Assembly: GCA_033764315.1 (NCBI GenBank)
Contig: JANRJA010000090.1
Coordinates: 1-25,810 of the forward strand
From: Oculatellaceae cyanobacterium bins.114
GTDB taxonomy: Bacteria > Cyanobacteriota > Cyanobacteriia > Elainellales > Elainellaceae
DNA length: 25,810 nt
Direction: 5' to 3'
This document shows, piece after piece, positions 1 through 11,276 of the stretch. The translations under genes and the position numbers were made by a program. How positions within the stretch are numbered: the first letter of the stretch is position 1; the number at the start of each line of letters is the position of its first letter. The notes under the pieces are model-generated. The model made no database searches. It had not been told where the DNA came from and was given only the letters and a program-made list of their open reading frames with translations.

Positions 1-61
1 CCTGCAACGCAAGAAGCGGCTGTTTTACAGACAGTTGCCCACGCTGATAGGCGAGCCGACC
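1..61 (-). tRNA. trnY: tRNA-Tyr(GUA), 3' end cut by the window edge
   Basis: Minus strand reads GGTCGGC TC GCCT ATCAGCGT GGGC A ACTGT CTGTAAA ACAGC, then a long variable arm CGCTTCTTGCG and the start of the T stem GCAGG. The D loop lacks GG. Confidence 0.8.
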
Positions 62-98
62 TATGTTTGGTTTTTGCTGCTCAAGGATGAGCAAGATT

Positions 99-175
99 TG
101 GCAGTGCCGACGGGAGTTGAACCCGCAAGCATCGACTTGAAAGATCGACGGCTTTACCCATTTGCCTACGGCACC
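99..175 (-). tRNA. trnE: tRNA-Glu(UUC), CCA encoded
   Basis: Acceptor GGTGCCG/CGGCACT-G-CCA; anticodon arm TCGAT CTTTCAA GTCGA; T arm GCGGG TTCAACT CCCGT. Confidence 0.92.
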
Positions 176-187
176 AAACTTTGAGAT

Positions 188-320
188 TTCTACAACGTGC
201 AAGTTTGAGAAGCTGTTTTTTCAGCCTCCAAGTTGGCGGAGGCTGTAGGAGTTGAACCTACTTCGCTGTTTAGGCGAGTGACCAGTATGTAGGCTTCTCG
301 GATGAGGGCACACCGTAGAA
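188..320 (-). ncRNA. Circularly permuted tRNA-mimic RNA, Y RNA (YrlA)-like
   Basis: The ends pair over 13 bp (TTCTACGGTGTGC/GCACGTTGTAGAA), then GAGAAGC/GCTTCTC. These stems enclose a hairpin TCGC..GCGA, a T arm GTAGG TTCAACT CCTAC, and an acceptor-like stem AGCCTCC/GGAGGCT closed by the loop GCCAACTT. Confidence 0.65.
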
Positions 321-391
321 CGCACAGACGAGGATTTGAACCTCGAACAACAGTTTTGGAGACCGTGATGTTGCCGTTACACCATCTGTGC
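321..391 (-). tRNA. trnW: tRNA-Trp(CCA), CCA end not encoded
   Basis: Acceptor GCACAGA/TCTGTGC with G73; anticodon arm ACGGT CTCCAAA ACTGT; T arm CGAGG TTCAAAT CCTCG. Confidence 0.92.
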
Positions 392-393
392 AT

Positions 394-468
394 TGGTCGC
401 AGCGGCGGGAGTCGAACCCGCAATGACCAAGTTATGAGCTTGGGGCTTTGCCATTAAGCTACGCTGCA
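394..468 (-). tRNA. trnM: tRNA with CAU anticodon (Met; elongator, initiator or Ile2 not resolved)
   Basis: Acceptor TGCAGCG/CGCTGCG-A-CCA with U1-G72; anticodon arm CCAAG CTCATAA CTTGG; T arm GCGGG TTCGACT CCCGC. Confidence 0.88.
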
Positions 469-473
469 ATGAT

Positions 474-548
474 TGGACTCCAGGGAGAGAATCGAACTCT
501 CGCTAGTTGGTTTTGCAGACCAACGCCTTCCCACTTGGAGACCTGGAG
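474..548 (-). tRNA. trnC: tRNA-Cys(GCA), CCA encoded
   Basis: Acceptor CTCCAGG/CCTGGAG with U73 (Cys identity) and CCA; anticodon arm TTGGT CTGCAAA ACCAA. Confidence 0.92.
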
Positions 549-551
549 ATT

Positions 552-633
552 TGGTGGAGATGTGGGGAATTGAACCCCAATCCTGCAACCGTCCGTTTGT
601 TGGTTTCGGAGCAAGTGATGCCAATCCATTCCC
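552..633 (-). ncRNA. Mini RNA resembling the tmRNA tRNA-like domain, with no anticodon arm and no tag ORF
   Basis: Reads GGGAATG GATTGGCATCAC TTGC..GCAG GAT TGGGG TTCAATT CCCCA CATCTCC A CCA. It has G3-U70, A73, encoded CCA and a stemless D loop like tmRNA TGGnnTCGAC. Confidence 0.6.
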
Positions 634-638
634 ACGAG

Positions 639-712
639 CGAGGATGACAGGGATCGAACCTGTGACCACTTGTCTCGGAAACAAGCACTCTCTCCATCTG
701 AGCTACATCCTC
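639..712 (-). tRNA. trnR: tRNA-Arg(CCG)
   Basis: Acceptor GAGGATG/CATCCTC; D arm GCTC..GAGT; anticodon arm CTTGT TTCCGAG ACAAG; T arm ACAGG TTCGATC CCTGT. Confidence 0.9.
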
Positions 713-714
713 AT

Positions 715-791
715 TGGGAGCCTTGACGGGGGTTGCACCCGCTTCTTTCTGGCTGAGAACCAGAACGACTTCTCTATTCGTCCACAAGGCT
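715..791 (-). tRNA. trnE: Atypical tRNA-Glu(CUC)
   Basis: Acceptor AGCCTTG/CAAGGCT-C-CCA; anticodon arm TCTGG TTCTCAG CCAGA. The T loop TGCAACC and the D loop without GG are non-canonical. Confidence 0.7.
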
Positions 792-854
792 ATACGGCTT
801 TTTTAGTTACATAGTTAGTGTTTCGCACTAACCATTAACCAGTTGAAAGCTACA

Positions 855-930
855 CGGGGATGATGGGATTTGAACCCACGATCTTTCGCTCGACAGGCGA
901 CTGCTTTGAGCCAGGCTAAGCTACACCCCC
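855..930 (-). tRNA. trnD: tRNA-Asp(GUC), first gene of the array
   Basis: Acceptor GGGGGTG/CATCCCC with G73; anticodon loop CTGTCGA; T arm GTGGG TTCAAAT CCCAT. Confidence 0.92.
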
Positions 931-949
931 AAAGGTGGCATTTATGAAG

Positions 950-1181: not shown

Positions 1182-1204
1182 TGGATTAGCTCCTCTGTGT
1201 CTTA

Positions 1205-1262
1205 TCTCATACTACAAATATAATACAACATACTACAAGATGTCGAGGGGGTACTACAACTT
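1205..1262 (-). promoter_or_regulatory. tRNA array promoter with phased TGTAGTA operator repeats (TrcR-like)
   Basis: tactaca/taataca at 1210, 1221, 1231 and 1252 overlap a -35 TCGACA (1241-1246) and an AT-rich -10. The same layout recurs at 11169-11217. Confidence 0.7.
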
Positions 1263-1770: not shown

Positions 1771-2301
1771 TCAGGTGTCAACAGGGTGCTGTTCTTTCCA
1801 AAACTGCTCAGCGAAGGCGATCGCTGGATGCATCGGTGCTTTGGGTTTGGTTTTGAGTACCATTCCGGTTTCATGTAAGAGGCGATCGCCCTTGCATGAA
1901 TTACACTTCTCACAGGCAGTCACCACGTTGTCCCAGGTATGGGTTCCACCCTTTGAGCGGGGAATGACATGATCCAGCGTCAAATGCTTGGTGCTACCGC
2001 AGTACTGACAGGTGTGGCTGTCGCGGCGAAAGACTTCCCGACGATTGACTGGAGGTACTTTCCAATGCCGTTCTGGATTGCCACTGGTCAACCGGATGTG
2101 GTCAGGGATTTGTAGTACGACACTGGGAGAGCGTACTTCCCATTGCTGGGTGCTACTGAACTCCAGAGTCTCTGCCTGTCCGGTAACAAGGAGCACGATC
2201 GCCCGTTTCAGGTTGATCCGCGCCAGTGGCAGGTAGTTCTTGGAGAACACCACCACCTGATTTTGGAGTATTGGAATTCTCTGTCGCTGCTCGGTCTGCA
2301 T
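1771..2301 (-). CDS. HNH endonuclease (McrA-like)
   Basis: CQYCG..LTLDHVIPRSKGG..WDNVVTACEKCNSCKG motif; start placed at ATG 2301 behind a GAGGAG Shine-Dalgarno. Confidence 0.92.
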   Translation of the reverse strand: MQTEQRQRIPILQNQVVVFSKNYLPLARINLKRAIVLLVTGQAETLEFSSTQQWEVRSPSVVLQIPDHIRLTSGNPERHWKVPPVNRREVFRRDSHTCQYCGSTKHLTLDHVIPRSKGGTHTWDNVVTACEKCNSCKGDRLLHETGMVLKTKPKAPMHPAIAFAEQFWKEQHPVDT

Positions 2302-2314
2302 CAGTTTTCTCCTC

Positions 2315-2354
2315 AAAAAATAACCCCCGCCTCTGAACACCAGGAGCGGGGGTT
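2315..2354 (-). terminator. Intrinsic terminator / attenuator upstream of the HNH gene
   Basis: Stem AACCCCCGC..GCGGGGGTT followed by ATTTTTT, between the leader ORF stop and the HNH Shine-Dalgarno. Confidence 0.75.
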
Positions 2355-10728: not shown

Positions 10729-10805
10729 TGGGGTGACTGACGAGAGTTGAACTCGCTAACACTGGTGTCACAGACCAGCCCCTCCACCACTTCGGGTTCA
10801 GTCAC
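10729..10805 (-). tRNA. trnH: tRNA-His(GUG), CCA encoded, no encoded G-1
   Basis: Acceptor GTGACTG/CAGTCAC with C73 and CCA; anticodon arm CTGGT CTGTGAC ACCAG; T arm GCGAG TTCAACT CTCGT. Confidence 0.88.
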
Positions 10806-10807
10806 AG

Positions 10808-10881
10808 TGGATTCTGGTCGGATTTGAACCGACATCTTTCTGCTTGCAAGGCAGACGCTTTTCCAATTAAGCTACAGACCC
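10808..10881 (-). tRNA. trnA: tRNA-Ala(UGC) with a 1-nt bulge in the acceptor stem
   Basis: GGGTCTG against CAGAATCC (8 nt), G3-U70 and A73; anticodon arm TCTGC CTTGCAA GCAGA. Confidence 0.8.
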
Positions 10882-10927
10882 AAGTTTCGTCATTGGTCAT
10901 TGGTCTTGTTAGTACTGATGACTAAAT

Positions 10928-10972
10928 TGGTAGTCCTGGCAAGATTTGAAACCGTAACCCTCTGTTTGTAAG
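10928..10972 (-). pseudogene. trnV: 3' half of tRNA-Val(UAC)
   Basis: CTTACAA ACAGA GGGTT ACGGT TTCAAAT CTTGC CAGGACT A CCA; the 5' half is absent and the T stem is mismatched. Confidence 0.7.
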
Positions 10973-11016
10973 ATATTTTTGTAAGACATTGGTGGAGTAC
11001 TTGCGTGTGCTGCGCG

Positions 11017-11276
11017 GAAGATGAATTTTCCTAATTTAATGCATCTTCTTGAAGTGAAATAGAAGTGCCAAAGATATGAGTATATGAGAACTCAAAGAGC
11101 TTCAAGAGAGTCCTGTTTTTAGTAAGAGAGTGAGTGCTCATTGGATTACTTCTCCGTGTCTCATCTCATACCACAATCGTAATACAACGTACTACAAGGC
11201 GTCAAGAGAGTACTACACCTTTTTTTGAGGGGGGAAGAGGGCGATCGCTCAACAAATACTGGTATCGTTCTCTCCC
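11017..11276 (-). promoter_or_regulatory. Second copy of the tRNA array promoter/leader, with TGTAGTA boxes and a 36-aa leader ORF (11031-11141)
   Basis: Colinear similarity to about 1057-1315; -35 TTGACG at 11200-11205; boxes at 11169, 11180, 11190 and 11211. Confidence 0.8.

Follow-up and report, generated by a model that had tools for sequence, protein, structure and literature searches.

The window analysed here is a stretch of 25,810 nucleotides (nt) from the Oculatellaceae cyanobacterium bins.114 (assembly GCA_033764315.1, contig JANRJA010000090.1, positions 1 to 25,810), and its subject is an 82-nt element lying on the minus strand between the tRNA-Arg(CCG) and tRNA-Cys(GCA) genes of a long tRNA array. 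The element resembles the tRNA-like domain (TLD) of transfer-messenger RNA (tmRNA), with nothing of the tag-encoding part, and forms part, as a conserved cassette, of the long tRNA arrays that have spread horizontally among cyanobacteria and are inducible by stress. The reading favoured here, which we rate at slightly better than even, is that of a tag-less 'mini-tmRNA' gene, the product of which would be charged with alanine, act together with SmpB on stalled ribosomes without tagging, and be a competitor of full-length tmRNA under translation stress. As about 100 genomes carry the gene behind a promoter of the translation-stress type, it probably alters the rescue of stalled ribosomes.

Structure of the element

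Neither a tRNA nor a tmRNA was called by ARAGORN at positions 552-633, and no match to the Rfam tRNA model was kept there. This gap in the ARAGORN calls, together with the letters themselves, bears out the initial annotation of the stretch, which had described an 82-nt element between trnR and trnC that is not a cloverleaf. The alanine-type acceptor, T arm and stemless D loop described at the same time were all seen when the minus strand was read (Table 1). The acceptor stem of seven pairs contains G1-C72, G2-C71, G3.U70, an A4.C69 mismatch and three further pairs, and is followed by A73 and an encoded CCA. The D-loop stretch, GAUUGGCAUCA(C), is purine-rich, 11-12 nt long and contains GG, and a linker of 2 nt precedes the T arm. 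The D stem, the anticodon arm and an alanine anticodon are absent.

The proposed kinship with tmRNA was upheld by the Rfam tmRNA covariance model (RF00023), which matched the element with an E value of 4.7e-12 in a 1300-nt search, at a score (34.9 bits) below the curated gathering score of 47 bits; relatives of the element reached up to 49.6 bits. Genome-wide, this was the second-best tmRNA match, and only the true ssrA (G000:C175:15431-15813, tag ANNIVPFARKAVAIA) scored higher, at 127 bits. The alignment runs over model positions 1-374 and uses 29 nt for 320 model positions, the 24-nt loop standing in for the entire mRNA-like domain and its pseudoknots; this interior has no room for PK1-PK4. 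The alignment and a reading of the frames further show the element to be without a resume codon, a tag reading frame or a stop codon. A hidden tag open reading frame (ORF) was accordingly rejected, as all three forward frames of the 82 nt are free of stop codons.

Judged by its letters, the window copy is a derived, slightly weakened variant. Its acceptor is a single G-to-A change away from the form GGGGAUG/CAUCUCC, and its D loop reads AUCAC where most relatives have UUCGAC (CGAUUGGUGUUCGAC over the full stretch). The junction of the D loop with helix 2a, a region where SmpB contacts the elbow in tmRNA, is therefore of the form UUCGAC...GGA in most relatives and AUCAC...GGA in the 82-nt subgroup to which the window copy belongs.

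A family of elements in cyanobacteria

When the 82 nt were compared by BLAST with 60 related genomes, matches were obtained in 12; nine were long, and all of these lay in the same slot of syntenic arrays. The slot to which the initial annotation had drawn attention thus holds the same element in other cyanobacterial arrays. A degenerate pattern of the central loop retrieved 96 stretches from species-representative genomes, with cyanobacteria named in 79 of 80 titles among the matches listed, and the positive genera included Nostoc, Scytonema, Leptolyngbya, Oculatella, Phormidesmis, Kovacikia, Stenomitos and others. A family covariance model, R1, was built from 40 distinct intact copies. It found 96 cyanobacterial copies in 100 loci, all scoring at least 42.9 bits (the best tRNA reached 31.5), a single copy in the genome of the window and, among 150 other genomes drawn evenly from the class, 11 that carry the element.

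Ten other copies were scanned with the Rfam tmRNA model, of which nine matched at 27.7-49.6 bits (top five 49.6, 48.6, 48.6, 46.8 and 45.4). Three of the ten exceeded the cut-off of 47, and for none of them did the tRNA model do better than the tmRNA model. With the window copy included, 10 of 11 copies had a tmRNA match at E <= 0.001 and no tRNA match kept; locus L023 gave no tmRNA match at this threshold. One Nostoc copy aligned to the tmRNA consensus with zero non-canonical flags.

The copies occur in two contexts. About one third lie in long arrays, with tRNA-Arg(CCG) before and tRNA-Cys after them, and the remaining two thirds or so, mostly from Nostoc and its relatives, stand alone outside arrays. 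The trn operon of Anabaena PCC 7120 carries an intact copy on plasmid delta (NC_003273.1; L120:2474-2557), between tRNA-Glu(UUC) and tRNA-Tyr. Stand-alone copies are found 60-100 nt downstream of a promoter with the same box layout as that of the arrays (see below), and of the 70 loci that were not assigned to the array type, 39 had at least two boxes in the 200 nt upstream (background 0.08). The mean pairwise identity in the stand-alone context was 0.918 for the element and 0.602 and 0.558 for its flanks. That the element has been kept with a stress-type promoter in a second setting speaks against a pseudogene carried as a passenger.

Homologous arrays were also located independently of the element, through their Cys-Met-Trp block, which gave 26 array loci (18 other genomes). 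The element was present in 12, and five were partial matches that did not include the slot. A normal tRNA-Ala was found in none of the 21 slots inspected between tRNA-Arg and tRNA-Cys, so that the simple decay of such a gene, the case that the initial annotation had set against its own proposal, is not what these arrays display.

Covariation and conserved identity elements

Covariation was assessed in an alignment (A2) of 40 distinct rows, all intact copies, with a model-based alignment (A3) used beside it. The paired cells of A2 were standard in 99.1% of cases, compared with 92.5% after shuffling and 40-54% when the partners were slid. Changes on both sides were seen in eight pairs, a number reached by none of 500 shuffles, and these comprised four of the seven acceptor pairs, three of the five T-stem pairs (the T stem being paired in 100% of cells) and one of the four pairs of helix 2a. 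All 40 rows have G1-C72 and G3.U70, and 39 of them have G2-C71. That the identity elements, including A73, remained fixed while neighbouring pairs covaried points to selection for recognition by AlaRS. The acceptor and T stems that had been proposed for the element are accordingly supported by covariation, whereas the small hairpin said to cap helix 2a found no such support, none of its four pairs covarying. The 24-nt loop is near-invariant and shows no compensatory change, and is therefore conserved as a sequence, its structure being unproven.

Array setting and promoter

In the main text of PMC8421152, the trn operon of PCC 7120 is described as silent in normal growth, induced by translation inhibitors and an aid to survival, and an HNH gene as conserved upstream of L-arrays. 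According to PMC10272220, the operon is repressed by TrcR, the footprinted site of which, TGTAGTAT, overlaps the -10 box; rtcB and the HNH gene that precedes the array are further targets of this repressor. The array promoter of the window has the same layout as that of the PCC 7120 trn operon. TGTAGTA occurs 10 times in the window, against 0.9 expected, and three of these boxes lie at 2603-2652, before the HNH endonuclease gene; one stretch there is closely like the motif given for the promoter of trcR itself in the main text of PMC10272220. To judge from these motifs, the window array, the PCC 7120 trn operon and many stand-alone copies are all placed behind putative TrcR repressor boxes of the TGTAGTAT type, which strengthens the link to translation stress that had been suggested for the element.

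The element begins 4 nt after tRNA-Arg(CCG) and ends 3 nt before tRNA-Cys(GCA). The first 931 bases of the window contain seven tRNA genes, Asp, Glu(CUC), Arg(CCG), Cys, Met, Trp and Glu(UUC), all on the minus strand, and window position 1 is the end of the contig (G000:C117:1).

Table 1. Positions of the element, its parts and its surroundings in the window
Feature	Positions	Strand	Basis or remark
TLD-only tmRNA-like gene (lacking the coding sequence, CDS-less), 82 nt	552..633	-	Rfam tmRNA 34.9 bits; family model R1 86.2 bits
Acceptor stem, 5' strand GGGAAUG, element positions 1-7	627..633	-	Partner 556-562
Stemless D-loop analogue GAUUGGCAUCA, element positions 8-18, invariant GG	616..626	-	Alignment and Rfam
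Helix 2a, 5' strand CUUGC, element positions 19-23	611..615	-	Partner 582-586
Loop closing helix 2a, 24 nt, element positions 24-47	587..610	-	Nearly invariant in 48 distinct copies
Helix 2a, 3' strand GCAGG, element positions 48-52	582..586	-	Fold and covariation analysis
T arm UGGGG-UUCAAUU-CCCCA, element positions 55-71	563..579	-	Rfam alignment and fold
Acceptor stem, 3' strand CAUCUCC, element positions 72-78	556..562	-	Read from the letters
Discriminator A and encoded CCA	552..555	-	A (A73) invariant across 48 aligned copies
tRNA-Arg(CCG), upstream neighbour of the element	638-712	-	ARAGORN, Rfam
tRNA-Cys(GCA), downstream neighbour of the element	474-548	-	ARAGORN, Rfam
Long tRNA array, part on this contig: 7 tRNA genes and the element	99..931	-	Array broken off by contig end at 1
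Array promoter, three TGTAGTA boxes at 1210-1258 with 21-nt spacing, TrcR-type operator	1200..1262	-	Box scan
HNH endonuclease gene upstream of the array	1771..2340	-	Pfam HNH, E 1e-15

Proposed function and alternative explanations

The family possesses the AlaRS identity set, a standard T loop, the D-loop GG needed for the elbow and, in most copies, a tmRNA-type junction by helix 2a, and the genome encodes one SmpB and one full ssrA. SmpB is reported to bind the elbow of the TLD and to take the place of the anticodon arm, and an isolated alanyl-TLD has been crystallised together with SmpB and EF-Tu on a stalled ribosome, in the A site (PMC3968760). For the mini-tmRNA, the following course of events can be envisaged. 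Under translation stress, repression by TrcR would be relieved and the element co-transcribed with the array, its RNA would be excised like the neighbouring tRNAs, and AlaRS would charge it with alanine by way of G3.U70 and A73. The charged RNA would then be bound by the single SmpB of the cell, and EF-Tu would bring it to ribosomes whose A site is empty, where it would take over the nascent chain and offer no tag frame. By competing with full-length tmRNA both for SmpB and at stalled ribosomes, it would reduce degradation tagging under stress or abolish it, and the resulting peptidyl-RNA could be resolved by drop-off and Pth or by release of the ArfB type. A more far-reaching proposal, and a tentative one, is that cyanobacteria run a regulated second mode of trans-translation, a tag-free rescue to which SmpB and stalled ribosomes would be drawn away from tag-and-destroy rescue, and which would spare nascent proteins when synthesis is scarce; the mini-tmRNA would then be made together with spare tRNAs and RtcB once TrcR lets go.

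Several observations weigh against the mini-tmRNA reading. The processing, charging, SmpB binding and ribosome entry of the RNA are all inferred, and 23 of the 26 RNAs of the PCC 7120 operon were detected in a study whose main text does not name the element among those probed (PMC8421152). Metatranscriptome contigs from three studies, and contigs from one run whose type is uncertain, extend from tRNA-Cys across the element into tRNA-Arg (for example 504-672 and 521-668; depth 14-110), but they give only a weak hint of expression, as DNA carry-over is possible and RNA ends are invisible in them; the uncovered stretch 806-849 is uninformative, its spacer being absent from related arrays, and among the sequencing runs none contained half of the sampled words. 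The folding energy of the element was no better than that of shuffled sequences (z -0.20), so that support for the structure comes from the models and the relatives and not from energy. Covariation was weak in helix 2a and absent from the inner hairpin, and alignment A2 omits the 82-nt subgroup of the window (8 of 48 distinct copies), the 5' end of which had been misplaced by MAFFT in alignment A1; in A3, this subgroup pairs like the other copies. The high identity among copies may partly reflect recent horizontal spread. The window copy itself falls under the Rfam cut-off and carries the A4.C69 mismatch, and with AUCAC it has lost the first G of the GAC/GGA junction beside helix 2a. Furthermore, 28 of the 96 copies are disrupted (T-loop insertion in 25, 5' deletion in five, both in three, other damage in one). 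Among the 26 array loci, the slot is occupied in eight by a different element of about 147 nt, a genome of the same genus included, and in one it holds only a 36-nt remnant, from which it follows that the cassette is optional and dispensable for the array.

These last features are also what would be expected of a functionless, decaying relic, whether a fragment of tRNA-Ala or of tmRNA, carried as a passive passenger of a mobile array; disrupted copies, nine homologous arrays without the element, a window copy with a mismatch and a shortened D loop, and the three of 26 PCC 7120 operon genes called pseudogenes in the main text of PMC8421152 all accord with it. Such a relic is nevertheless the least probable of the explanations considered. 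Its stems would not be expected to show compensatory changes while the identity elements stay fixed, nor would its conservation lie far above that of the flanks, and in Nostoc the element has been kept outside arrays with its own TrcR-type promoter. The arrays also have a normal tRNA-Ala(UGC), so that the element is not the remnant of that gene, and both halves of the TLD are present, unlike in the 3' fragments left by island integration. An RNA that is tRNA-like but independent of SmpB, serving as a non-ribosomal alanine donor or as an RNase P/Z processing or punctuation signal in the array transcript, is likewise judged quite improbable. It would fit the packing of the element at 3-4 nt from its tRNA neighbours, like any array member, and its position in Nostoc as the first RNA of a transcript with other odd tRNA-like RNAs and a small ORF. 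Most copies, however, retain the tmRNA-typical UGG, UUCGAC and GGA, and for every matching copy the best family was tmRNA and not tRNA; a processing signal would have no need of an invariant G3.U70 and A73, and no aminoacyl-transferase gene was seen near the element that would suit an alanine donor.

A pure sponge for SmpB (and AlaRS) deserves more weight, though it too is considered fairly unlikely. In this case the RNA would bind SmpB off the ribosome and so lower trans-translation, would accept no peptide, and its charging would be irrelevant. In its favour, the genome has a single SmpB, and the TLD-only form from mycobacteriophage DS6A is reported to inhibit E. coli tmRNA (PMC11915505). 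Recognition by AlaRS is, however, needless for a sponge, and G3.U70, G1-C72 and A73 are invariant amid covarying pairs; an isolated alanyl-TLD is, moreover, able to enter the A site with SmpB and EF-Tu, as in the structure cited above. The invariant alanine identity elements thus favour, as far as conservation can indicate it, a charged, ribosome-entering RNA over titration of SmpB. A role as a nuclease decoy, raised in the initial annotation, gained no support.

Insertions and neighbouring RNA genes

The T-loop insertions, seen in 25 of the 96 copies and in several sequence subgroups but not in the window, consist of about 22 nt (core GGGAAGGCAAAGCCTAC) or of a 44-nt version, always at one fixed point. 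The affected loci are L016, L022, L024, L031, L034, L036, L047, L052, L059, L063, L071, L078, L086, L087, L089, L100, L101, L103 and others. The core occurs 66 times in the collected loci and is then followed by the 3' part of the T loop and the T stem of several tRNA genes as well, for example tRNA-Arg(CCG) in L011 and L021. The insertion looks like a mobile mini-element, or the footprint of one, that is specific to T loops. We know of no description of such an insertion.

Downstream of the stand-alone copy, a composite RNA gene was noted at L074:6950-7330 (minus strand), at L035:3643-3990 (plus strand) and in about 45 other Nostoc loci. Its outer frame, GGGUCUG...CAGAUCC-A, resembles tRNA-Ala with G3.U70 and is broken by about 190 nt, within which lies an acceptor-less tRNA core (Rfam tRNA positions 10-63, 48.8 bits) whose anticodon is mostly CUA (amber-reading), with CUU or UUU at some loci. 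It is followed by a 69-aa ORF (MVHIRFEGRSVD...), a 240-aa ORF and a 477-aa vWA-domain protein. A reading of this neighbour as Ro/TROVE was not supported, as Pfam returned for the neighbouring genes only the vWA match in the 477-aa protein; Rfam found no further family in the Nostoc module.

A second family of array elements that are not tRNAs measures about 145 nt. Its members are flanked by GTGCCCT...AGAAGCCTACATAC and CAGCTTCT..AACTTGCAC, and a partial tRNA-like core and a hairpin lie inside. The window has one at 176-319 (minus strand), where it takes up the space separating tRNA-Trp from tRNA-Glu(UUC). Further members lie at L162:1354-1500 and in L163, L165, L166, L169, L170, L178 and L185, and in eight arrays without the mini-tmRNA it is this family that is found in the slot between tRNA-Arg and tRNA-Cys; its 5' motif occurs 148 times in the collected loci. 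Elsewhere in the window, at 10732-11225 (minus strand), the promoter and leader of the array recur in nearly identical form, the TGTAGTA boxes of this copy lying at 11190-11217. The copy drives tRNA-Ala(UGC) at 10809-10881 and tRNA-His(GUG) at 10732-10805, the latter missed by ARAGORN. The acceptor of this tRNA-Ala is irregular, with G3 opposite A as aligned or, alternatively, G3.U and a bulged A. An Ala-His pair likewise terminates the PCC 7120 array. Finally, 24 further array tRNA genes are found at another contig end of the same genome (L003, G000:C69:26638-29239). Its overlap with window positions 1-230 is only 82.6% identical and thus no simple contig-end overlap, which points to a second array or to a repeated segment that broke the assembly; that this contig directly continues the window array is a tentative reading.

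Comparison with known systems

Within its own genome, the element invites comparison with two kinds of gene. It shares the features of the TLD and the alanine identity with canonical one-piece tmRNA, which in addition has the resume codon, tag ORF, stop codon and pseudoknots that the element lacks. A recent deletion derivative of the host ssrA was rejected: the TLD sequences differ, and the end of the host ssrA scores 24.3 bits on R1, both of which argue against such an origin. With tRNA-Ala, the element has G3.U70, A73 and the T arm in common, whereas the D stem, anticodon arm and anticodon of that tRNA have no counterpart in it. Derivation as a remnant of the tRNA-Ala of the array was likewise rejected, a separate tRNA-Ala(UGC) having been kept that scores 27.7 bits on R1, compared with at least 42.9 for members of the family.

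Tag-less tmRNAs of mitochondria had been named in the initial annotation as precedents, but the closest one, the TLD-only tmRNA of mycobacteriophage DS6A, had been missed. According to PMC4131195 and PMC11915505, DS6A encodes such an RNA, and a molecule like it strongly inhibits E. coli tmRNA whether or not it can be charged, perhaps by titrating SmpB. The DS6A element was located at JN698994.1 28478-28560 (83 nt; 43.2 bits on the Rfam tmRNA model), and R1 matched it at 52.5 bits (E 1.6e-10), above every tRNA in the 747 kb searched (best 31.5). It is like the cyanobacterial family in length (83 against 82-84 nt, both within the 65-85 nt of the TLD-only type), in its G3.U70 acceptor, T arm and discriminator A, in a stemless D loop with GG and (U/G)UCGAC, and in a short helix 2a with a small loop starting CGAAA(A)CC. 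The phage also has an RtcB-like RNA ligase (L122 49300-50502), and rtcB is co-regulated with the cyanobacterial array. The DS6A gene, however, is a phage gene outside tRNA arrays, with blastn matches confined to DS6A records in the phage collection, whereas the cyanobacterial family is spread over chromosomes and plasmids of about 100 species representatives, behind the operator of a host repressor. The two are alike by model score, which does not by itself establish common descent. An origin from cyanophages was rejected, as the loop pattern had no match in viral contigs and blastn against the phage collection gave matches at the level of the T arm only.

Among viral contigs from IMG/VR, 35 (L124-L158) match a strict generic TLD-only pattern, at 64-80 nt; one is of DS6A length, only one has three or more tRNA genes around the match, and many have the loop AA(A/G)(A/G)CC with a small hairpin after it, a trait that DS6A and the cyanobacterial family share. 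In Gordonia phage Forza, a gene for a Ro-like RNA-binding protein (L123 1-756) stands beside a tRNA array and a tmRNA. In phages, too, genes for RNA repair are thus found together with rescue RNAs, a parallel to rtcB in the TrcR regulon of cyanobacteria.

CDS-less tmRNAs are further reported from the mitochondria of jakobids and oomycetes and from the plastids of two Mallomonadaceae, where they co-occur with SmpB (PMC11915505). Likened by description rather than by comparison of sequences, they too consist of the tRNA-like domain only and have no tag frame. In these organelles, the CDS-less form is the sole tmRNA, whereas here it coexists with a complete ssrA. Mycobacterial arrays can carry genes for a full tmRNA, RF1 and Pth (Morgado and Vicente 2018, PMC5966550), and in them and in mycobacteriophage arrays a rescue RNA likewise sits in a horizontally spread tRNA array, often with an HNH gene nearby (PMC5966550); the mycobacterial array tmRNAs are reported as whole, while the cyanobacterial element is the tRNA-like domain alone.

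The kind of RNA described here has thus been published before, from one phage and from organelles, and the TrcR-linked cyanobacterial family appears to be new. No literature report of it was found in a search that covered texts without their supplements, where an earlier mention is possible. The words 'tmRNA', 'SmpB' and 'ssrA' do not occur in the main text of PMC8421152, nor 'tmRNA' and 'SmpB' in that of PMC10272220, and 'Nostoc' and 'tRNA array' do not occur in PMC11915505. CDS-less tmRNAs have barely been studied, and to the one phage, some mitochondria and two plastids previously on record, free-living cyanobacteria are now added, within an operon that two groups have studied in the tractable Anabaena PCC 7120. 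As the trn operon of this strain carries a copy behind a TrcR-type promoter, the function of tag-less tmRNAs becomes directly testable, and the survival benefit credited to the tRNAs of the array may partly stem from an overlooked ribosome-rescue RNA. Should a second, tag-free mode of trans-translation indeed operate in cyanobacteria, phage RNAs such as that of DS6A would be either the viral counterpart of a stress device of cells or the source from which it came.

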